Source: a virus (lineage: Duplodnaviria; Caudoviricetes). Taken from it: a DNA stretch of 27,843 bases. The position numbers and the translations under genes are program-made. The stretch covers positions 1 through 27,843 of the IMG/VR virus record IMGVR_UViG_3300049167_000039. One strand, written 5' to 3'. Of the stretch, positions 7,565 through 27,822 are shown piece by piece. Position 1 is the stretch's first letter; each line of letters starts with the position of its first letter. The notes under the pieces were generated by a model. It was not told the DNA's origin and searched no databases. It worked only from the letters and a program-made list of their open reading frames with translations.

Positions 7565-10500
7565 ATGGATATGGGCAATATGGCTTCAATGAAGTTCAAG
7601 CTTGATTTAGAAGGACTTGGTTCAGCAACAACAGACTTCGCTAAATTAAGTCGTGTTACAAAAATTTATGATAGTGAAATTGCAAAAGCTAAAGCAGGCG
7701 TTAAAAAGTTTGAACAAAATTTAGATGCAATGAAAGAAGTTGCAGATGCTACAACTAAAAAATTAGAAGTACAAAAACTTACTGTTAAGCAAATGGAAGA
7801 AGAGTATGCTGATTTAGTTCGCACAAAAGGTGAAGACGATGTGGAGACTCAGAAATTATTAACTAGATATAATCGTCAAGTAGCCCAAATGAAGAAGACA
7901 GAGATGGGTTTACAAAACCTAAATGGAAAAATTAAAGAACAGAGTAGTGCTTATGTCGAAGTTTCAAAAGAAGCAGACAAAGCAATTAAGGGCATTGAGC
8001 AAGACTTAAAAGTTTTAAATAGTCAATATAGTAAAACAACCGATGGGATTAATGATTTAAAACAAGAATCAGAGAAATTAAATAAGACGTTAGACTTGCA
8101 AGGAAAAGTTTCTGATCAATTGAAAAGAAAATATGAAGCTTTGAAAAGTGAGAAAGGCGAAGACAATAAAGCAACGAAAGATGCTTTAATAGCTTATAAC
8201 GAATCCATTCAAACGATGAAAAAAACCGAAACAGCTTTAGATGGCGTTAAGGTTAAGATAAAGGAACAAGGAAGCGAGTTTAATAAAGCGTCTAAGGAAG
8301 CTAAAGATTCACTAGATAGTATTGAACAAGATTTAAAAGTCTTAGCTAGTGAATACGGTAAAACTTCAGCAAGTATGTCTAAAATGGGTGCTAATTCAGA
8401 AGACTTATTTCAACAGTCTATGCATATGGAAAAGCAATTAAGGCTTGAAGAGAAAGCAGTTCAAGCATTGCAACGTAAATATGAAGCATCAGCAAGAGAA
8501 AAAGGCGAAGACGCAAAGGAAACAAAAGAAGCGTACATTCAGTTAAATGAATATATCGCAAAGATGAACAAAACAAGTAACACCTTGAACAGTCTAAATC
8601 ACAAAATAGATGAATCGAAAGGATCATTTAGATTATTTGGACGTGAAGTTCATATTGCTGGTGGAAAATTAGACGAATTCAAAGAACGTGCAGGAGATAT
8701 CAATGCATCAATGAAAGCTGGTATGGTTGCTGGACTTGCTGCTGGTGGTGCTGCATCTGTTAAGGCTGCTGTTGATATTAACAGTTCTCAAAAACGTATC
8801 CAAGCACAACTAGGACTTACAGGTGAAAATGCAAAAGAATTAAATAATATCACTACAGATTTATGGAAAAAAGGTTTCGGTGAAAACATGGATGAAGTTC
8901 GTAATGGACTCATTCAAACGAGACAGAATATTCAAGGGTTGAATAATGGTGAATTAAAGAAAGTAACACAAGACGCTTTAGTGTTAGCCGATGTATTTGA
9001 AGCAGATGTAAATGAAGTAACTCGTGCTGGTGGAAACGTAATGAAAGGGTTTGGTGTAGACTCTGAAAAAGCGTTTGATTTAATGGCATGGGGAGCACAA
9101 AAAGGCTTAAACTTCTCCAATGAAATGTTCGATAATCTCTCAGAATATGCTCCACTTTATAAACGTATGGGCTTTAGCGCAGATGAATATTTTCAATTAT
9201 TAGCTCAAGGTGCTCAAAGTGGCGTTTACAATCTTGACTACATAAACGATGCAATGAAAGAGTTCCAAATTCGATTAACTGATGGCTCTAAAGGTACATC
9301 GGACTCATTCGCATTAATGTCTAAGAGTACTCAAAATCTATTTAAACAGTTTAAAGCAGGTAAAATCACTGTTAAAGACATGCACAATGCTGTATTAGAA
9401 GAGCTTCAAGGAATGGATAATCAAGTTCAAGCTAACATCATTGGGGTAGGTTTGTACGGTACTAAATGGGAAGATATGGAAAAAGATACCATGTACGCTT
9501 TAGGAAACATTGACGGAAAGATTAAAGGTGTAGATGGAAGTATGAAAAATGCTTCTGCTGTAACTGAATCTCTAGGACAACGTGCTAAAGCCGCATTCCG
9601 TGAATTTATGGCTGCAATCGCTCCATTGGGAACTAGATTATTAGATATCGCTGATCGTTGGATGCCTAAAATTGAAACTGGTATCAATAATGTTACTGGT
9701 GCATTTGATAAAATGTCTCCTTCTGCACAAGATGCTACACTCGCTGTTGCTGGATTTGTAGGTGCAGGCGTTGGTATCGCAGGTATGGTTGGAGGTATTG
9801 GTGGCATTGGTAGTGCATTTGCTTTATTATCTAATCCAATTGGCTTGACAGCATTGGCAATTGCTGGTGTTACAGCAGAAGGAGTACTAGTTTATAAGAA
9901 TTGGTATGCCTTAAAAGACTTGATGAAAGACCATCCATTGTTAGGATTAGCTATTAAGTTAACTCCTGTTCAGGGACAATTCATTGAGCTTGTAGGTAGC
10001 ATTCGAGAATTCCGTGACCAAATGAATAAATCAGCTATCGATACAGGATTAAATTCAGATAAGATTTCGGAAGGAACTAAGAAAGCCATCAATGCTTATA
10101 TGGATATGGACAACAAAGCGTATGCTTCAATGGTCAACTTGTCTGCAAGAGGTGGAATTGTTACGCAAGAATTCGCTGATAGTCAAATTGCTCAATATGA
10201 AGCAATGGCAAGTAAAATTCAAGCTTCAATGGACACTGACCATGCAAAACGTATTGAAAAGACTAAAGCTTTATTCGCAACAAATACTGCTTTATCTGAT
10301 GAAGAAAAAGAACTAGCTTTAAAGAAAATGGACGATGACCATGCAATTAAGAAAATGCGTCTTGAAGAATATGTGGCAAAGATATCTGAAATTGAAAACA
10401 GAGCATCAAAAGAAAAACGTGATTTAACTGAATCTGAGAAACGTACTATCAACGGTATTCGTGAAAATATGCGTGTTGAAGCAGTTAAAACTTTAAGTAA

Positions 10501-12712
10501 ATCTGAAGAAGAGCAAATTATGATTTTAGGACGTTTGAAAAATGACGCTTCTAAACTATCAGCTCAACAGGCAGCAGATGTTGTTAAATCATCTGCAACT
10601 CAACGTGATAAGACTGTTAAACAAGCAGATGAACAATATCAGAAACAAAAGAAAAAGTACGAATATCTACGTGATGTAACTGGTACTATCACAGCAGAAC
10701 AAGCAAGACGTTCTATTGCAAATGCTAAAGAACAACGTGATCAAACTGTTCGTAAAGCAGAACAAATGCACGAAGATGTTGTAGAAGAAGCTCAATTACA
10801 AGCTCAAGGACATATCGATGCAGTAAATTGGGAGTCAGGCGAAGTTAAAGATGGTTGGGATGAAATGTATGACAAAGTTCATGCGGTTTATAACAACATT
10901 TTAGAATTCTTTGGAAAAGACCCTAAGAAAAAGAAATCAACAGGTTCAACTAAATTCAAAAAGGACACTGGTAAACGTTCTGCTGGCACAGTAACTAAAG
11001 GTGGAGCAGTTGAGAAACAATATGCAATTGGTACACCAAACGGTTCACATCCAGGCGGATTAGCTAGAGTCGGTGAAGTCGGTGAAGAGCTTGCATATAT
11101 TCCTGGGCATGGAGTTGGACTATTAGGTGTAGGTGGAGAACAAGTTGTAGATTTACCTAAAGGTACGTCTGTATTACCTCACCATCACACTAAGAATCTA
11201 CTTAAACGTTATGGATTTGGTGGAAAGATGCCTGCTTATAAAGAGGGCACAAAGGATAGCGTATTTGATATGGCAATGAAAGGTGCAGACTATTTATGGG
11301 ACAATGGAATGAAGAAACTTGGAGTTACTGACAAGTTGATTCCTGATTGGTTTAATAACATTTCAGGTAGTCCATTAGGACTCATGAGAGACATTGCAGT
11401 AGATAGTGTCCAAGCATTAATTGATGATTTTCTTGGTGCATTCGGTGGCGGTGGAAGCAGTTCTGTAGCAAGTTACTACTTAGACAACTTCCGTGTTAGT
11501 ACACCATTTAGCCCTAACAAGGGATTGAATGATGGATGGCATAGTGGCGGTCATAAAGGTATTGACTTAGCTCGTAAAGGTCAAAAATCAATCATGGGTA
11601 TGGCAATCAAGTCTTTAACAGATGGCGTTGTATCTCAAGTGTTGGTTAATAATCCTACTGCTGGAAATGGTGTTCGCATTAAGAGTGGTAATCGTGTATT
11701 CAGTTACATTCATATGCAAGACCCACCACCTGTTAAAACAGGACAAAAGATTTCAATGGGACAATTGATTGGACGCATAGGCTCAACAGGACGTTCAAGT
11801 GGGGCGCATTTGGATTTGAAGGTGACTGAGAACGGGCGTTACATAGACCCCTTGAAAGTGTTAAGACAAATGGCTGAAGAAGGTGGAGAAGGTGGTTATT
11901 CTGGTGGAAACTACAAAGGACAATTCTCTTCTATCATCAACGCAGCAGGTAAAAAATATGGTGTTAGTCCTGCTTTAATCGCTGGTATCATTCAACAAGA
12001 ATCTAAGTTTAATCCTAATGCTCGTTCTCCTGTTGGAGCTACAGGTTTAATGCAATTAATGCCTGCAACAGCTCGTGGTATGGGTGTTAAAAATCCTCGT
12101 GACCCTTATCAAAACATCATGGGCGGTACACGTTACATTAAAGAAATGCTCAATATGTTTAATGGGAATTTAGACAAGGCTTTACGTGGTTATAATGCGG
12201 GACCAGGGAACGTACTTAACGGTAGAGCTTATAAATTAAAAGAAACAAATAACTACGTTCGTATTGTTAAAGCTAACTACAACAGATTCAAGAAATCAGG
12301 AATTGGAGCTTATGCAACAGGTGGTAAAATCACTGACCATCAAGTAGCTCAATTAGGTGAAAATGGATATGACGAGTATGTATTGACTACTGAGCCACGT
12401 TACAGAAATAAAAACTTAGCCTTACTTGCAGAAGTGTCAGAAAGGTTAGGTGCATACAGTCCTATTCCTAAAGTGCCTAAGACTTCAAATGTTTCTAATA
12501 ATATCATCAATAACAATACGACTAATAATTCATCTTCTGCACAGCAACAACCTACGATTAATTATAGTCCTACTATTAACTTCACATATACAGGTAGTCC
12601 CGATATGGAAAGTATGAAGTTGGCATATGAAAATCTAAGAAAATTAATGAAAGAGGAAATGGAAAAGGTTAATCGTCCTAAAGGCATCAAATTATCGGGA
12701 GGTTTATTTTAA
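7565..12712 (+). CDS. Tape measure protein with C-terminal M23 peptidase and SLT lytic transglycosylase domains
   Basis: 1715 aa, mostly coiled-coil, central hydrophobic Gly/Ala stretch; M23 motifs [24 protein letters not shown]; SLT motifs [21 protein letters not shown]. Confidence 0.95.
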
Positions 12713-19285: not shown

Positions 19286-19489
19286 TTATTCCTCAATTTC
19301 CTCATACAAATCATCCACTTTAACATTTAACACCTTGGCAAGTAAGAAGAGCTTATCTGCTGTCGGAAAATTATTCATTTTAATCCAATTTGATAGTTGC
19401 GCGGGCGTTATTCCAACTTCCTTAGCTATATGCTTTTTTAAATATCCCTTTTCTAAAATGATTGTCTCGATACAGGATTTTAACCTCAT
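19286..19489 (-). CDS. XRE/Cro-family HTH transcriptional regulator
   Basis: KKHIAKEVGITPAQLSNWIK...P......LAKVLNVKVDDLY; SD AGGTGA. Confidence 0.92.
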   Translation of the reverse strand: MRLKSCIETIILEKGYLKKHIAKEVGITPAQLSNWIKMNNFPTADKLFLLAKVLNVKVDDLYEEIEE

Positions 19490-19537: not shown

Positions 19538-19624
19538 TAAAATAGATTTGAAAAATAATTATAGAAAATTATAAGTACAAGATATCTTAGACAATCAGAC
19601 CGACATATCATTTATCATAACTAA

Positions 19625-19663
19625 AAAGTTCGCTTCACAAGACGTTATGAAAGTTCGATTCAC
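19625..19663. repeat. 14-bp direct repeat AAAGTTCG(C/A)TTCAC x2
   Basis: Copies at 19625-19638 and 19650-19663, one mismatch. Confidence 0.7.
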
Positions 19664-19800
19664 TAGTTCTTTCCTCAGTACGCATGGTGAACTTTTAAAC
19701 GAATTTCAAAATGTTATTCTCTCAGCGCTTCAACTCTATTCCATCTAGTTCGTTTAATAAGGGACTATACTGCGTATAAAAAGCAGAAGGGTGTGGTGAT

Positions 19801-21153
19801 ATGCTTCTAGAATTGACTACAGGAATCACAGTAGCTTCAGTTTTTGGAATTGCTAAATTAAAGCAAGATGGACGGTCAAGGGACGATGCAAAAAAGATAA
19901 AACAAATTGCTGACAATAATGGATTAAAAAAAGATGGTCAATCAATCATCATCAAAAGACGAGATCCACTAAACCGAAAAAAGAATAAGCTCTATGCTGA
20001 GTACATTTATCAAATTCCATTAGGCTTGTCATTTGATGACTTCATGGATAAATTCGCTAAGTTTGAGGATGGCTTGAATAATAAGAAAACCTTGTACTCG
20101 ATTACCTTATCCGATATTAAGAATATTAACTTTAAAAAATTACGAACTATTAGAACTTGGAAAGGTAAGGCAGAGTATCTACAAAAAATCATCAAAGAAA
20201 AACATCTAATTAGAAAATCAATCGATATGTCCTATGATGGGATGCTAAGAGTAAAAGTTTATGAAAGTGACATGCCAAATAAGGTTGAATTTGATTCTGA
20301 GAAGTGGAAGAAGTGTAAAGGATGGAATATGCCACTTGGAGAGACGAGAGAAGGAACAGTATTCATTGATCTAGCTAAAGGACATTTTATCGTAGCTGGT
20401 GCAACTACGTTCGGTAAATCAGCTTTGCTAAAACTTCTTATAAGTACTCTGTTAAATAACAAACCAGATGAGACAATGTTAACCTTAATTGACTTAAAGG
20501 GTGGACTTGAGATGATGTACTTTGAGGACTGTAAACAAACAGTAAACTTCAAGGACGATTTAGAAGGTGCTGTAGAAGTTTTAAAACGGATTAAAGAGGA
20601 TGTTCAAGCAAGACAGCAACACTTGAGAGAAAAGAAATTTAATAATGTTCATAAAGCAGGCATAAAACAACGTCATTTCATTATTGTTGATGAAGCTAGT
20701 GAACTTGCACCTTCACAAGTCCCATCTCAATACAAGGAGCTTGCAAAAGAAGCACAGGCATACATGAGTTTTATCACTCGTATCGGTCACTCAATGGGGT
20801 ATACGCTAATCTACAGTACACAATATCCAGTCGGTGATGTAATGCCAAATCAGATAAAAGCCAATTCAGCAACTACACTTTGCTTTCGATTAGAAACAGA
20901 CACTCAATCTGAAACTGTACTTGATCAAACAGGAGCAGAGCTTATCCAATATCAAGGAAGATGTATCTATCGTACACCAGAAGGAAGAAAACTTGTTCAA
21001 ACTTACCTCATAAATGATGACACTATTAATGATGTTGTCACTCCAAACACTGTTATCAGACCTCGAAAGGATGAAGAGAATGCAGAAGTATGCGAAGAGA
21101 GAACAGAAGATAGATGCGATATTGCAATCTTTGAAGACACTGAACTATCTTAG
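19801..21153 (+). CDS. FtsK/SpoIIIE-family ATPase (coupling-protein-like)
   Basis: Walker A IVAGATTFGKS, LIDLKGGLE, Walker B IIVDEA, STQYP, QGRCIY; short hydrophobic N-terminus. Confidence 0.93.
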   Translation: MLLELTTGITVASVFGIAKLKQDGRSRDDAKKIKQIADNNGLKKDGQSIIIKRRDPLNRKKNKLYAEYIYQIPLGLSFDDFMDKFAKFEDGLNNKKTLYSITLSDIKNINFKKLRTIRTWKGKAEYLQKIIKEKHLIRKSIDMSYDGMLRVKVYESDMPNKVEFDSEKWKKCKGWNMPLGETREGTVFIDLAKGHFIVAGATTFGKSALLKLLISTLLNNKPDETMLTLIDLKGGLEMMYFEDCKQTVNFKDDLEGAVEVLKRIKEDVQARQQHLREKKFNNVHKAGIKQRHFIIVDEASELAPSQVPSQYKELAKEAQAYMSFITRIGHSMGYTLIYSTQYPVGDVMPNQIKANSATTLCFRLETDTQSETVLDQTGAELIQYQGRCIYRTPEGRKLVQTYLINDDTINDVVTPNTVIRPRKDEENAEVCEERTEDRCDIAIFEDTELS

Positions 21154-21670
21154 TCGTTCACAAATCCAGACGTTACATGATTTAAAAGGTGATAGAAATG
21201 CACAAAAGTTTTTGAAGTCGATGGATGAATATTTGAACTCATTTAGAGATGGAGAAACAATCTATTACTTATCCAAAGAGGGAAGGGAACGTGTTGATTG
21301 TCCAAGAGTTATTAAGAAAACAACTACAGCGCGCCACTATATCATGCGTAACGCTTTGTACATTGCATTCGGTGAACCTGAGACATGGAGAAATGAGCAA
21401 CGTGTAAGACATAAAGTGGCTACTATCATATGTGATGCAACGTTTGTGGATGGAGGTACACGTTATCTAATTGAAATTGATCATGAACAAAAAATGACTG
21501 CTAATAAAATTAAGATGGAAAAGTATCGGAAACTTATTGAAGCTAATGCTTTTGGTAATAACCCTGTTCAAATTGTTTGGATGACTACGACTGAGTATAG
21601 ACGTAAGCAGTTAGAAAAGCTTTGTGAAAGTTTGAATGCACAAATTTTTATTATTACGGATTTCCAATAA
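21080..21670 (+). CDS. Replication-relaxation (Replic_Relax, MOBC-like) protein
   Basis: N-terminal wHTH-like LSRSQIQTLH..YYLSKEG, HYIMRN, PD-(D/E)xK-like CDATF..YLIEID..K..KY; ATG 21080 after SD AAGGA; overlaps ftsK 3' end. Confidence 0.85.
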   Translation: MQKYAKREQKIDAILQSLKTLNYLSRSQIQTLHDLKGDRNAQKFLKSMDEYLNSFRDGETIYYLSKEGRERVDCPRVIKKTTTARHYIMRNALYIAFGEPETWRNEQRVRHKVATIICDATFVDGGTRYLIEIDHEQKMTANKIKMEKYRKLIEANAFGNNPVQIVWMTTTEYRRKQLEKLCESLNAQIFIITDFQ

Positions 21671-21682
21671 AATATTTAGGAG

Positions 21683-22108
21683 ATGGTTAATATGTTTACA
21701 TCTAAGAAGATTCAAACGGTTGGTACAGTAAAAGAGTTTTTAAATTCCTCAACACCTACTTCCTCTAAGAAAGATATCGTTCCAATGTTAGCTACAGGTT
21801 CAACACTTCCTCTAATCTTCAGTGCAATGCCTACATTCTCATTTGCTGAATCAATTACTGCTAGTGCATCAGTTAAAGCAGACGTATCACAAAAGATCAT
21901 TACAGCATTCCAGCCACTTACTGACCTGGTTCAAGGCTTGAGCTACCCTATTACATTCTTAGTTTTCAGTGCAGCAGGCATCTATTGGTTAATTGGGAAT
22001 CGTCCTAAAGCAGTTGAAATGCTTCAAGGTGCAACGATTGGTTACATCTTAGTACAACTATCTCCATTGCTTATGCGCTTATTAGTATCAGTTACAGCAG
22101 GATTTTAA
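21683..22108 (+). CDS. Membrane protein, TrbC/VirB2 pilin-like architecture
   Basis: Signal-peptide-like segment ending TFSFA, then two hydrophobic helices joined by basic loop GNRPKA; SD AGGAG. Confidence 0.65.
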   Translation: MVNMFTSKKIQTVGTVKEFLNSSTPTSSKKDIVPMLATGSTLPLIFSAMPTFSFAESITASASVKADVSQKIITAFQPLTDLVQGLSYPITFLVFSAAGIYWLIGNRPKAVEMLQGATIGYILVQLSPLLMRLLVSVTAGF

Positions 22109-22121
22109 GGGGGATTGCAGT

Positions 22122-22469
22122 ATGTGGGGCAAGGTTCAAACCGTTGGAGCAATTGGAGATTTCATGAATAAAGGGGATATGATAGGAACTGCTGCCCCTT
22201 TTGAATCTGTATTAGATTGGGCGTTACATCCAGTCGAACAGACTAAAGAAATGGGTACGAACGCTATGTATGAGCATGTCGAACCGTTCTTAGATATTTT
22301 ATGTGTCGTTTCTACACCAATTGCAAGTATCGTCATGAGCATCGCTGGATTACTGTATATTCTGAGTTTTAGAGAGAAAAGTATGTCATGGATAACCAAA
22401 ACAGGCTTAACTTACGTGATCATTCAACTGTTGCCAATGCTGATAAAATCAGTGTTACAAATGATGTAA
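22122..22469 (+). CDS. Membrane protein, paralogue of the upstream gene
   Basis: KVQTVGAIGDFMN versus KIQTVGTVKEFLN; YVIIQLLPMLI versus YILVQLSPLLM; two TM helices. Confidence 0.7.
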   Translation: MWGKVQTVGAIGDFMNKGDMIGTAAPFESVLDWALHPVEQTKEMGTNAMYEHVEPFLDILCVVSTPIASIVMSIAGLLYILSFREKSMSWITKTGLTYVIIQLLPMLIKSVLQMM

Positions 22470-22470
22470 A

Positions 22471-22497
22471 GCAGCTTAATTTTAAGCTGTTCTTTTT
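22471..22497 (+). terminator. Intrinsic terminator ending the ftsK operon
   Basis: GCAGCTT-AATTTT-AAGCTGT followed by TCTTTTT. Confidence 0.7.
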
Positions 22498-24698: not shown

Positions 24699-25346
24699 AT
24701 GGGAGAAAATTCACTAAAAAAAGAAGAACTGAACGAGATATTGTCAGATAATAAGGCTACAAAAGAAGAACAGTTAATGCAACAACTTGAAGTAATATCT
24801 TCTCACCAGCTTTTGATAGAATTCTCAGGGGGAGCAGAACCACCAAAGGAAGACTTGAAAATGATTGAAGAAGTTATGGTTAATCAAAAACTTTCCCAAG
24901 GTGTGATAAATGTCTTAATCTATTATGTTATGTTGAGAACAGATATGAAACTGTCTAGAAGATATTTTGAAAAGATTGCTGGACATTGGGCTAGAAAAAA
25001 AGTTCACACAGTTCAAGAAGCAATGAATTTAGTAAAAACTGAAGATAAGCAGTATCAATACTGGCAAAAAACAAAAAACAATCATAATTCAAATAAGAAA
25101 ATAGATAATTCAATATATCAACGTGAGTTGTATAAAAGAAGCATCGAGCGTAGGTATGGCTTTGATAAAGCGATAATCAATTTAATTCTTGATTATACAG
25201 ATGATATTAACGATGGATTGTTTCCAAAGTGGTTTGTCATTAGCTTATCAGACTTCCTACAAAAGCATGATCTAAAAGAATTTATAGAAGCTGAACAACT
25301 AATTAGAGATTTCCATAAGAAATATGTATTAAATTTCGGAAAATAA
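24699..25346 (+). CDS. DnaD/DnaB_2 (DDBH2) domain protein resembling the C-terminus of Bacillus DnaB
   Basis: GVINVLIYYVMLRTDMKLSRRYFEKIAGHWARKKVHTVQEAM closely matches my recollection of the B. subtilis DnaB C-terminal domain; lacks the DnaB N-terminal half. Confidence 0.82.
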   Translation: MGENSLKKEELNEILSDNKATKEEQLMQQLEVISSHQLLIEFSGGAEPPKEDLKMIEEVMVNQKLSQGVINVLIYYVMLRTDMKLSRRYFEKIAGHWARKKVHTVQEAMNLVKTEDKQYQYWQKTKNNHNSNKKIDNSIYQRELYKRSIERRYGFDKAIINLILDYTDDINDGLFPKWFVISLSDFLQKHDLKEFIEAEQLIRDFHKKYVLNFGK

Positions 25347-25356
25347 GGTGACTGCT

Positions 25357-25914
25357 ATGTTAATACGTACTCATGCAAAAGAAAGATATGTTGAAAGGAT
25401 CTTAAAGATTACTAACAAAAAAGAAGTTAAAGAATATATTAAAAATAATGAGTTCGAGATATCCTTTCGAATAATGGAAATGTTAAATGATTCAGAGCTT
25501 TTACATAGTAGTTATGCTGTATCTAGAGGGAAGAATACCTACTCATATTATGTTTTAAATAACCTCCTAATTGTTGTGCATGCCAATGGTAAAGAGATAA
25601 TAACAATTTATGATTTAATATTAGATGCAAAAGAAGAATCGAATTTAAGATTGATTAAGCAACATATTAAAGAAATTAAGAAGAACATTCAAAGAATCAA
25701 TCTTAAGGAAAGTGAAAAGAGTCATCAAGATAAAGAGACTGATAACATTGAATATATGATTAAAAAAACTCGAGAACAACTTCAAAACCTTGAAAGCTTA
25801 AGAGAACAGTCCATTGAAAGATGTAAAAATCGAGTTCATGAAATTAAACAAATACGTTACGAAAATAGAGAGCTAATGGAAAACTTAATGTTTGGTTTTA
25901 GACAATTTAAATAA
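25357..25914 (+). CDS. Hypothetical protein: N-terminal THAKERY (DUF4258/RelE-like?) domain plus C-terminal coiled coil
   Basis: ATG 25357 after SD AAGGTG overlapping the upstream stop; IRTHAKERYVER ... LLIVV....IITIY pattern; heptad-rich C-terminus. Confidence 0.6.
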   Translation: MLIRTHAKERYVERILKITNKKEVKEYIKNNEFEISFRIMEMLNDSELLHSSYAVSRGKNTYSYYVLNNLLIVVHANGKEIITIYDLILDAKEESNLRLIKQHIKEIKKNIQRINLKESEKSHQDKETDNIEYMIKKTREQLQNLESLREQSIERCKNRVHEIKQIRYENRELMENLMFGFRQFK

Positions 25915-25922
25915 ACCTAACT

Positions 25923-26705
25923 TTAAGCAATTAGCATTTTCCATTCTGCATTTAAAAATTGTTCGCAAACTTTATAAAAATAGCCATAGATATTTCTGAT
26001 ATAGTAGCCTAATTTCATGTTTACGATACATTGTTTAAAAGTACGTATACCCAACCAACACTTATCTAATCCAGCGTAATAATCTACATAGTCTTCAATA
26101 AATTCATTGTAGTGTTGAGTCAGGTTACGGACGCATTTCCAGAGCTCTATAGTTTCTCTAGGAGTATATCCATAAGCCATTACTAAAGATGAAAATTCAA
26201 TAGGAATACCTTTGATTACATTGTCTTTACGTATATTAATATTAAGATTATTAGTTTTAAAAAGATTACTAGTTTCTGCTGGTCCAATTTGTTCCCGTTG
26301 CAGTGGTTCAATTAAGTCTTGTAAAGAATTTAAATTACTTTCTTTTGTTGACTGATAACAGTTAAACACATATACAGAATGACCTTGTTTACCATTATTG
26401 AACGTATGATGAATTGTAATAAGGCTCATTTCTTGCGCCTTTAATAACATACGCTTAAATGATGATCGTGAAATTCCAAAATTGTTATTATGAGTAGCAG
26501 AAACGATTGTGCCGATTTTAGCATTACATACACCAAATACACTTGCAGAAAAGCGCACAAGACGTTTTAAAGCAATTAATTCAGATTTAGTAAGTAATTT
26601 TTGTTGATGGATATCTAAATACCATTGCTCCATTGATGAGTTAAATCCTTTAAGACTTTTGAAGTTGGATAGATGCTGAAAGTTACTAATGTGTCCAGAT
26701 TTCAT
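25923..26705 (-). CDS. Winged-HTH protein, putative replication initiator of an integrative element
   Basis: LTKSELIAL..GVCNAKIGTI..GISRSSFKRML..LITI..VYVF wHTH, N/K-rich linker, C-terminal IRNIYGYF motif; ATG 26705 after SD GGAGG. Confidence 0.65.
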   Translation of the reverse strand: MKSGHISNFQHLSNFKSLKGFNSSMEQWYLDIHQQKLLTKSELIALKRLVRFSASVFGVCNAKIGTIVSATHNNNFGISRSSFKRMLLKAQEMSLITIHHTFNNGKQGHSVYVFNCYQSTKESNLNSLQDLIEPLQREQIGPAETSNLFKTNNLNINIRKDNVIKGIPIEFSSLVMAYGYTPRETIELWKCVRNLTQHYNEFIEDYVDYYAGLDKCWLGIRTFKQCIVNMKLGYYIRNIYGYFYKVCEQFLNAEWKMLIA

Positions 26706-26760
26706 TATTAAGCCCTCCATAAATATGGTTTTTGGGCATAATCAAATAAGCTTAAAATCA

Positions 26761-26789
26761 TTGATTTTTTTAAGCAAGTATTTTACACT
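26761..26789 (+). promoter_or_regulatory. SigA-like promoter oriented antisense to the int/HTH genes
   Basis: TTGATT-N17-TACACT. Confidence 0.55.
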
Positions 26790-26795
26790 AAATGT

Positions 26796-26862
26796 AGTGA
26801 AGTCAGTGTGTATTTGATTATGCACAACGGAGAGAGTGTGGGTGCAACCATACTCTCTTTTT
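26796..26862 (+). ncRNA. Putative ~65-nt antisense (counter-transcript) RNA
   Basis: Bounded by a plus-strand promoter and a plus-strand terminator, while both flanking genes are on the minus strand; 5' end estimated. Confidence 0.5.
26831..26862 (+). terminator. Plus-strand intrinsic terminator
   Basis: AGAGAGTGTGG-GTGCAA-CCATACTCTCT then TTTTGTTTG; the G.U pair and T-tract both specify plus-strand polarity. Confidence 0.7.
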
Positions 26863-26868
26863 GTTTGT

Positions 26869-27786
26869 TTAAATCTCTAAATTGTTAAGTGGATTATACC
26901 TATCATTTTGTTCCCTTAAGTCATTTCCCCACATGGCAGCATAACGTTCTGTTACACTGATATTGCTGTGACGCATTAGTTTTTGAATGGCAAAGGTACT
27001 CATTCCTGACTGAATACATCGCTGACAGAAGGTGTGTCGAAATGTGTGTGCAGAAAGGCGTACATCTCTAAAATTCATGATCTTTGATAGCCGCTTAAAG
27101 ATATTTTGTACAGCATTTTCTGTAAGGTATTGATTATCACGATTAGTAAATATGTACTCACTCAGTTGATTAAATCTCTGTTCACAATAAACTTTGTAGC
27201 CCGCTAACTCTTTTAATAATTTATCAGTAGCAGGGATTACGTCTGACTGTCGTGTTTTACTGGAATATACACTGATTGTTTTATGCTGAAAATCAATGTT
27301 TGACCATTTTAAAGAGCATAGTTCGCCTAAACGGACACCAGTTGATAGTAGGGTAACAATAATCGTGTAATCACGGTATGAATAAAACGCTTTATCACGT
27401 TGTTTAATCCTTCTATAATGGTTCAACATCTGTTTGATATGATAATCCGTAAAAACTTCAATGTGAATATCTTCTTTTACCCGTTTAATCTTCTTAGCAG
27501 GATTCTTCTCAATAACTTCAATTTCTACTAAATAATTTAACAAGGCATTTAGACGAGTTAACTTATGATTTAAGCTAGTTGGATTATTTCCCAGTTCATT
27601 CTTACAGTACACAAGATACTTCTTAATGGTGTTTTGAGTAATATCTTGTACGTTGATAATTTCATTCGCACTACAGTAATTAATAAACTGATTAAGAATA
27701 TCTTTGTAACCGATAATTGTCTTCTGTGAAATATTTTTAAATTCCCGATCATCGATAAAGTCTTGTACTGCAAATTTTAAAAGCAA
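26869..27786 (-). CDS. Tyrosine recombinase / integrase
   Basis: TGVRLGEL (R), SKT (K), HTFRH, MRHSNISVTERY (H, Y); SAM-like N-terminus; TTG 27786 after SD AGGAGG (ORF track starts at 27813). Confidence 0.95.
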   Translation of the reverse strand: MLLKFAVQDFIDDREFKNISQKTIIGYKDILNQFINYCSANEIINVQDITQNTIKKYLVYCKNELGNNPTSLNHKLTRLNALLNYLVEIEVIEKNPAKKIKRVKEDIHIEVFTDYHIKQMLNHYRRIKQRDKAFYSYRDYTIIVTLLSTGVRLGELCSLKWSNIDFQHKTISVYSSKTRQSDVIPATDKLLKELAGYKVYCEQRFNQLSEYIFTNRDNQYLTENAVQNIFKRLSKIMNFRDVRLSAHTFRHTFCQRCIQSGMSTFAIQKLMRHSNISVTERYAAMWGNDLREQNDRYNPLNNLEI

Positions 27787-27788
27787 AT

Positions 27789-27822
27789 AAAAAAACCTCC
27801 TCATGAAAACCATGAAGAGGTT
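27789..27822 (-). terminator. Minus-strand terminator-like hairpin containing the integrase SD
   Basis: AACCTCTTCATG-GTTTT-CATGAGGAGGTT followed by TTTTT. Confidence 0.65.

Follow-up and report, generated by a model that had tools for sequence, protein, structure and literature searches.

What would a tailed phage do with the parts of a conjugation system? This question is raised by an operon in a 27.8-kb virus fragment, IMG/VR record IMGVR_UViG_3300049167_000039 (positions 1 to 27,843; the window, by which we mean the whole stretch analysed), a Bacillus-type phage with terminase, portal, capsid, tail, holin, endolysin and serine integrase genes. The lysis genes and the integrase are separated by a divergent Xre gene and by four open reading frames (ORFs) in a common orientation, which an earlier note had read, from the sequence alone, as a minimal conjugation-like operon of an FtsK/SpoIIIE ATPase, a MOBC-like relaxase and two pilin-like proteins. 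We found that three of these genes make up a conserved unit, and there is good evidence that it is a relaxase, coupling protein and pilin unit with its own cis site. It likely moves phage DNA over a membrane without a virus particle. Tentatively, we favour the reading that it is a minimal exporter delivering phage DNA from the mother cell to the forespore.

The operon and its conserved core

The four ORFs encode proteins of 450 (FtsK), 196 (the nuclease, from the ATG at 21080), 141 and 115 amino acids (aa). The ftsK and nuclease genes overlap by 74 nt, and the later intergenic gaps are 12 and 13 nt.

19801..21153, + strand: FtsK/TcpA-type coupling ATPase, with one N-terminal hydrophobic segment, a motor domain, a conserved C-terminal tail (residues 438-450) and no gamma domain
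21080..21670, + strand: Replic_Relax (MOBC-like) PD-(D/E)xK nuclease, with an N-terminal helical domain of DNA-binding type
21683..22108, + strand: pro-pilin-like protein A, with a leader of about 55 aa up to the invariant Ala55, an amphipathic helix and two membrane segments
22122..22469, + strand: accessory pilin-like paralogue B, 23% identical to A (E 5e-10; profile match 98.9%)
22470..22491, + strand: intrinsic terminator-like stem at the operon end

The packed, co-oriented arrangement described in the earlier note was confirmed, as was its terminator, although the stem is a consensus match only because three terminator-like sites were found compared with 1.9 in shuffled sequences. Relative to a close relative (locus L011), synonymous and non-synonymous codon changes numbered 81 and 25 in ftsK, 21 and 5 in the nuclease gene, and 26 and 7 in the gene for pilin A. 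The fourth gene, with 18 and 16, showed no synonymous excess comparable to that of the first three.

Gene neighbourhoods were counted at the best 80 of 186 genome matches. In all 80, ftsK adjoins the nuclease gene (in one as a fused ORF), and a gene of the pilin family follows directly 3' of the nuclease in 79, the remaining locus ending at a contig edge. All 20 nuclease-anchored viral loci had the same gene order. The conserved unit thus consists of three genes, ftsK, the Replic_Relax nuclease and one pilin-like gene, and the second pilin lies outside it. Conservation of all four genes, which the earlier note had put forward for checking, is rejected, as two pilins occur in only 2 of the 80 loci. 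The fused ORF (L128:4723-6564, Cytobacillus solani) joins FtsK and nuclease in 613 aa and may be a true fusion or a frameshift; a weak search of 7996 candidates for longer fused forms of the nuclease found none.

At the 79 loci with a pilin gene, the slot after the first pilin is filled in 15 by an M23 peptidase that has a membrane hairpin at its C-terminus, in 6 by the hairpin alone and in 2 by a second pilin; nothing was recognised in 54, and the slot was too short in 2. The hairpin of the peptidase (L078:7048-7644 and 14 other loci) has two membrane segments, and a signal peptide is not obvious. A transfer hydrolase had been listed among the missing parts; for the module as such this is not supported, since 15 of 79 relatives have the M23 peptidase in the fourth slot. 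In loci of the B. cereus group (L072:7180-7770, L074, L076, L079) a MerR-type helix-turn-helix (HTH)/DUF3967 gene follows the pilin.

A relaxase-like nuclease and a coupling-type ATPase

The nuclease matches PF13814 (43.9 bits, cut-off 25.3), a family that CONJscan equates with MobC (PMC5357655). Its structure model, with a predicted local distance difference test (pLDDT) score of 95.8, has the PD-(D/E)xK restriction-endonuclease fold, and the D..ExD..K..Y motif seen in the earlier note corresponds to D119, E132, D134, K145 and Y149, all of them invariant in sets of 80 and 82 homologues. Published accounts of MOBC relaxases give these enzymes a restriction-endonuclease-like structure, an acidic site for metal and a tyrosine that is essential (PMC6736028, PMC12857230), and the C-terminal domain of the Gamma phage protein has been matched to MobC by HHpred at E 0.005 (Pathria 2012, PMC3357382). 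The nuclease shares with these enzymes the PF13814 match, the fold, and the conserved acidic ligands with a downstream tyrosine, which supports the claim that it is a MOBC-like nuclease. The top Foldseek matches were Can2/Card1-type nucleases (E 3e-4 to 9e-4), with FokI and a repair endonuclease also found; no PDB sequence matched at E <= 1. PHROGs labels the family 'replication initiation protein'.

The ATPase matches PF01580 (E 1e-12, above the cut-off), and its Walker A (residues 200-207) and Walker B (294-299) motifs are intact, as had been noted. Residues G200, G205, K206, D297, E298, Q341 and R387 are invariant among 82 homologues, 78 of which have a hydrophobic N-terminus. At nuclease loci the protein ends 42-67 residues past Q400 (51 in the window), leaving no room for a gamma domain; this winged-helix domain of the SpoIIIE, FtsK and TraB translocases is absent from the window FtsK, which has a short tail instead. 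The NCBIfam FtsK and TraB scores are far under the cut-offs. Among solved structures, the ATPase profile best matched a 'DNA translocase coupling protein' at 143 bits (6O1W/6O1Z, which we take to be pCW3 TcpA), compared with 122 for FtsK. The FtsK-like motor, the N-terminal membrane anchor and the missing gamma domain are those of a TcpA-type protein, and the best structural match bears out the earlier view of a coupling-protein-type ATPase.

The tail of the ATPase may be the place where the two proteins meet. In a modelled complex, FtsK residues 440-450 lie on nuclease residues 104-112 with a score of 0.64, compared with 0.00 for the best control. By run the score was 0.43, 0.64 and 0.66, with contact agreement of at least 41% and partner pLDDT of at least 84. 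In a calibration made with other alignments than those used here, 116 of 157 solved pairs and 2 of 215 mismatched pairs scored as high as 0.64. The tail motif is conserved, and the FtsKs of four loci without the nuclease stop 17-25 residues past Q400 and have no tail. The model supports a predicted docking of the FtsK tail on the nuclease, like a coupling protein holding its relaxosome.

The pilin-like proteins

Both small proteins of the window have two hydrophobic segments, as the earlier note had described, with those of the first protein being borderline (Kyte-Doolittle values 1.5-1.8). Three PHROG families are common to both, and they are paralogues. Conjugative pro-pilins have a long leader and a small mature part. 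An alignment of 35 of 52 homologues, query included, showed a leader of 49-78 aa ending at an invariant Ala and a mature part of 80-104 aa; we infer that the leader would be cleaved after this Ala. Among these 35 relatives, 26 match PF18895 (T4SS_pilin, the pilin of type IV secretion systems, T4SSs) and 9 match PF04956, with a best E of 4.3e-8. VirB2-like kinship is thus supported for the family by domain matches and pro-pilin anatomy. For the window's own copies, a Pfam or fold match to VirB2 is not supported.

Other searches with these proteins were uninformative rather than negative: the pilin model (pLDDT 63.6) returned only generic helical hairpins in fold searches, and the pilin profile found nothing among PDB sequences. 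Atlas feature matches of 0.80-0.84 are at the level of leads only. As possible kin of the pilin, holins, Wbeta wp21 and the membrane hairpin linked to M23 were rejected, since none aligned with it (probability <2%).

A hairpin just upstream of ftsK

Three elements precede the ftsK gene.

19696..19756, no strand assigned: long-range inverted repeat (arms 19696-19703 and 19749-19756, 45-nt spacer), enriched in the family
19761..19778, - strand: conserved box with a perfect 5-bp hairpin, loop GCA on the - strand, a candidate origin of transfer (oriT)/nic site or single-strand signal
19789..19798, + strand: GT-rich ribosome-binding tract with GGGTG, where the family is enriched in GGTGG

We compared the 300 nt 5' of ftsK, with start codons assigned heuristically, at 142 loci; 105 of these were non-redundant and 101 had the nuclease. 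A hairpin of at least 5 bp stands 14-62 nt before the ftsK start at 95 of the 101 nuclease loci (shuffles: mean 17.7, maximum 28; control region further upstream: 28) and at none of the four loci without the nuclease. In 58 of the 95 the loop has the sequence G..A on the - strand, and in 1 it has it on the + strand. Both inner pairs are Watson-Crick at 68 of 74 loci, against a mean of 10.4 and a maximum of 21 when the halves were re-dealt, in a test where loci were picked by their outer letters only, with three pair types per position and without control for kinship.

G-N-A loops make very stable DNA hairpins, and we therefore read the element as a DNA structure of the - strand, either a candidate oriT or a priming signal on a transferred strand. 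It could instead function in an RNA leader. Folding of 19680-19803 as DNA or RNA gave no significant z-score, so the hairpin rests on conservation and not on energy; the Rfam scan gave one chance-level match only, and the RNA holder search listed none.

Long-range stems of at least 6 bp with a 42-52 nt spacer are present at 20 of 93 anchored loci, compared with a shuffle mean of 2.8 and maximum of 6. GGTGG precedes 70 of 101 ftsK starts but is rare before the starts of pilin genes (2 of 100) and nuclease genes (3 of 101); the window has GGGTG and no GGTGG. This tract doubles as a ribosome-binding site, and it is similar to the nic core of CloDF13 given in PMC5935869.

A promoter motif of sporulation type

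Upstream of these elements lies a further motif.

19579..19614, + strand: family promoter-like motif with sigmaE-type boxes (-10 box at 19604-19611 good, -35 box degenerate, spacer 16 nt)

By enumeration, ATA-N18-ATAC is present in 35 of the 101 upstream regions where 3.5 would be expected, and the promoter matrix motif is found in 48 (shuffles: 0-1), including the window, at 19579, and phage Andromeda. The window motif scores 24.3 with this phage-derived matrix, a value that none of 200 shuffles reached. The phage two-box model gave a mean of 10.0 (n=19, from five genomes with one truncated locus dropped) on the upstream regions of host spoIID, spoIVA, spoIIIAA and spoIIM and of 3.4 (n=20) on control regions of gpr, spoIIR, rpsB and dnaA (p 1.7e-5); the host genes were assigned to regulons as in B. 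subtilis. In the opposite direction, a sigmaE box model derived from host genes only placed 36 of the 101 phage upstream regions over the null 95th percentile, while the control models (gpr/spoIIR and rpsB/dnaA), which are weak controls as their convergence on true promoters is unclear, placed 4 and 5. Thus, the family's -35 and -10 boxes match host sigmaE promoters, whereas those of the window's own copy do not. Patterns for sigmaF, sigmaG, sigmaK and Spo0A showed no enrichment in the upstream regions, and the sigmaH pattern was found in 4 of 101 compared with a shuffle maximum of 4.

Within the promoter spacer, GGACAA-N-CAG (window 19589-19598) is conserved, and its reverse complement is also enriched upstream. 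It is possibly an Xre operator; the alternative, that a sigmaA promoter in the divergent direction has GGACAA as its -35 box, found no support.

The distribution of the pilin also points to sporulating hosts. It was found in 20 of 272 spoIVA-positive and in 0 of 129 spoIVA-negative Bacilli genomes (p 3.4e-4, uncorrected for phylogeny and genome size). SigmaE acts once the septum has formed. We consider the evidence moderate that the unit acts in the mother cell.

Distribution and variants

Among 50,697 phage records, 104 match the nuclease, with GenBank and RefSeq copies counted separately; Bacillus accounts for 96 of them and Geobacillus for 6, and 2 are labelled Staphylococcus. Matches were also found in 100 plasmid records, all from Bacillales genera, and in 4 of 401 phylum-wide genomes. 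The module often adjoins an integrase gene and is also carried on plasmids of 50-300 kb. It was also seen in a Nocardioides-labelled contig (L119); the Nocardioides- and Staphylococcus-labelled carriers may be either mislabelled or real exceptions. Phage Andromeda has the three-gene module with both the promoter motif and the hairpin. None of its 79 features is annotated as an integrase or partition gene, and it encodes a polymerase, a primase and a helicase.

Four loci, two of them near-identical, have a small upstream gene of DNA-binding type, FtsK and the pilin but not the nuclease. At these loci (L049:3522-5507, L059, L060, L065) FtsK is tail-less and the hairpin box is absent. This variant is possibly a version for double-stranded DNA. 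In phages D6E, TP-84, 055SW001 and PBC5 the pilin family is paired with an unrelated P-loop ATPase of 720-750 aa, the pilin lying directly 5' of it (L001:4941-7552, L002:5055-7594, L005:3989-6544, L006:3827-6479). Members of this ATPase family were found in 144 phage records, SPP1 and SPO1 (gp27.4) among them, with neighbours checked in the four named phages only. The annotated frame coordinates of TP-84 and D6E gave no Pfam match, and the D6E pilin gene is unannotated. At L057:5060-5387 the hairpin box stands directly 5' of a lone pilin gene, ftsK and the nuclease gene being gone.

A model for phage DNA transfer, and its alternatives

The earlier note had offered three routes by which phage DNA might travel without a virion: from cell to cell, through the T4SS of another element, or across the sporulation septum. 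Our results favour the septum, because of the sigmaE-type motif, the restriction to spoIVA-positive hosts and the presence of the module in Andromeda, a phage without an annotated integrase; the other two routes gain less. We propose a model in which, once the cell has divided asymmetrically, a sigmaE-type promoter would activate the operon in the mother cell. The nuclease would then bind and nick at or near the hairpin box just 5' of ftsK. The membrane-anchored ATPase, which lacks a gamma domain, would recruit the nuclease-DNA complex and pump the strand, and one or more processed pilins would line or bridge a short conduit through the two closely apposed septal membranes. As there is little wall at the septum, VirB4, VirB6 and adhesins may not be needed, and the M23 peptidase would be optional. 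The phage genome would persist in the spore, and the mother cell would lyse. In its full form, which we hold to be rather doubtful, the proposal is that Bacillaceae phages, temperate and lytic, encode a VirB4-free conjugation machine acting within one cell, switched on by sigmaE, nicking at a hairpin origin and using a VirB2-type conduit into the forespore after septum closure.

Several observations weigh against delivery into the forespore or against parts of this model. VirB4, VirB6 and VirB8 found no match among 21 window proteins scanned in Pfam (every window ORF of at least 180 aa except the 1715-aa tail gene) and 12 scanned in NCBIfam, over the 27.8 kb of phage covered; this agrees with the earlier statement that VirB4 and VirB6 are missing from the window. 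The conduit step is the weakest because neither was found, and pilin assembly without them is unexplained within the model. The window's small proteins gave no Pfam match at E <= 0.01. The window promoter fails the host-derived sigmaE model (3.9, with 186 of 200 shuffles as high), and the family motif is present in only the 48 of 101 loci, with a spacer 1-2 nt longer than the host's. The spoIVA association may reflect uncorrected phylogeny or genome size, and two of the 104 nuclease-bearing phage records (OR670591, OR670592) bear a Staphylococcus label. In Wbeta-type loci the ATPase and nuclease are present, but this pilin family and the promoter motif are absent. During lytic infection, Fah ftsK is reported to belong to the genes with delayed-early transcription (PMC4113786). 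As for the docking, the calibration alignments differed from ours, and the FtsK tail is coded inside the ftsK/nuclease overlap, which could itself constrain it.

Other readings would account for some of the same evidence. The excised phage genome could hitch-hike to other cells, in the manner of mobilizable elements, through the mating channel of a co-resident integrative and conjugative element (ICE) or plasmid, with the pilin as an adaptor. The same relaxase, coupling protein and cis-site evidence would serve this reading, and streptococcal integrative mobilizable elements (IMEs) pair a coupling protein and a relaxase beside an integrase (PMC5357655), much as our module often stands beside an integrase and occurs on large plasmids too. 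However, Gram-positive T4SSs are described in two 2025 papers as having no VirB2 homologues (PMC12857230, PMC12102498), so a helper would need no pilin; the sigmaE-type motif, the spoIVA restriction and the Andromeda module would also be left unexplained, and we regard hitch-hiking as rather unlikely. It is also conceivable, though unlikely, that no new pore is made, and that the module holds or places phage DNA at the membrane or polar septum, or initiates its rolling-circle copying, and leaves its capture to host SpoIIIE or division. The PHROGs label of the nuclease would fit this, as would the variants that swap the nuclease for a small DNA-binding-type protein or use another ATPase, and the lack of a VirB6-type channel protein in the Pfam scan. 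Against it, the long-leader pro-pilin, the optional wall peptidase (15 of 79) and the coupling-type ATPase point to crossing of the envelope, sigmaE acts only after the septum has formed, and Andromeda has its own replication proteins.

An FtsK-type pump with small membrane proteins and an optional M23 peptidase could also be a self-sufficient minimal channel, like Streptomyces TraB/Spd, spreading the phage autonomously between vegetative or chained cells; a weak similarity to TraB (E 9e-4, far under the cut-off) would fit. We find this distinctly unlikely: FtsK has no gamma domain, the motif is of sporulation type, and the 64 of 79 pilin loci without a hydrolase are hard to reconcile with crossing two walls. 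Finally, the proteins might move no phage DNA at all, and block incoming conjugative elements or phages or disturb sporulation. The module does lie between lysis genes and integrase, a usual site of accessory genes, PD-(D/E)xK folds are common among defence nucleases, and L057 keeps only the hairpin box and the pilin. Yet the cis hairpin and the ATPase tail travel together with the nuclease, which fits processing of the element's own DNA, and we consider interference very improbable.

Other features of the window

Two features upstream of the operon may bear on its control.

19286..19489, - strand: Xre-type HTH gene, divergent, likely module regulator (PF01381, E 3e-8)
19625..19663, + strand: two near-identical 14-nt direct repeats (19625-19638 and 19650-19663), seen in the sequence

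Many of the 80 genome loci likewise have an Xre homologue upstream of ftsK, in divergent orientation. The direct repeats are possible operator or nuclease binding sites. Elsewhere in the window, the 1715-aa tail gene (7565-12712) encodes an M23-like domain at residues 1325-1443. On the 3' side of the serine integrase, 24699-27813 encodes a protein with a DnaB-like C-terminal domain, an unknown gene, an HTH protein and a tyrosine recombinase, and the G+C content drops to 0.28; this region is perhaps a second element.

Relation to known systems and significance

The idea of a relaxase and translocase in such phages is already in print. Pathria (2012, PMC3357382) described a 'DNA translocation operon' in 0305phi8-36, with partial versions in SPO1, GBSV1, Bacillus virus 1, Gamma, Cherry, Fah and Wbeta, linked the nuclease family to CloDF13 MobC by HHpred, gave a conjugation-like reading and reported that deletion of a related operon left plaque growth unaffected. 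The Bacillus phage 1 nuclease is 46.7% identical to that of the window. The two systems share the nuclease family and a translocase neighbour, and the 0305phi8-36 operon is dispensable for plaque growth; it differs in having a VirD4-like ATPase with VirB6- and MreB-like genes (PMC3357382). In its passages and section 15, that paper names no VirB2-like pilin, oriT candidate or promoter, and its main text has the string 'spor' 0 times. Others have noted the FtsK/SpoIIIE-nuclease pair without giving it a function (PMC11526630, PMC4559737), and PMC10294663 suggests in general terms, with no mechanism, that phage segregation genes bring about entrapment in spores. In a mostly open-access literature, we found no paper that describes the pilin, the hairpin site or the tail interface, or that tests entry into spores.

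With the MOBC modules (CloDF13 MobB/MobC, pAD1 TraX, streptococcal IME class 8) the window shares the PF13814 restriction-endonuclease fold, the acidic triad plus tyrosine, the coupling ATPase neighbour and, before ftsK, a GT-rich tract like the CloDF13 nic core (PMC5935869). It differs in being on a tailed phage, in having a pilin-like gene, and in a partner that is FtsK/TcpA-type (PF01580) and not VirD4; MobC IMEs pair with VirD4, and TcpA was never beside MobC in the set surveyed in PMC5357655. The motor resembles TcpA-type coupling proteins of Firmicute ICEs, IMEs and pCW3 in being FtsK-related without a gamma domain, but the module has no nearby VirB4/TcpF, VirB6 or VirB8, and its nuclease is of PF13814 and not MOBT/TcpM. 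Like VirB2/TrbC and Patescibacteria T4SS pilins, the small proteins have a long leader, a two-segment core, PF18895/PF04956 matches in relatives and tandem paralogues; unlike them, they have no VirB4 nearby and a Gram-positive spore-forming host, and the window copies are under detection. SpoIIIE and Streptomyces TraB are likewise FtsK-family motors, with a septum role like the one proposed here, whereas the window FtsK has one N-terminal hydrophobic segment, no gamma domain and a near-constant nuclease partner, which suggests that processed rather than intact DNA is moved.

An FtsK/SpoIIIE gene of unassigned role has long been listed in Bacillus phage genomes (e.g. PMC4559737). The three-gene core, the catalytic residues, the predicted tail-nuclease interface, the 18-bp candidate origin and the promoter class now provide handles that can be mutated. 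If our model is true, phages would gain access to the spore bank through a pump derived from conjugation, and a Gram-positive cell would be the setting in which a VirB2-like pilin works without VirB4. This would be an active, phage-encoded form of spore entrapment and a new use of the parts of conjugation.

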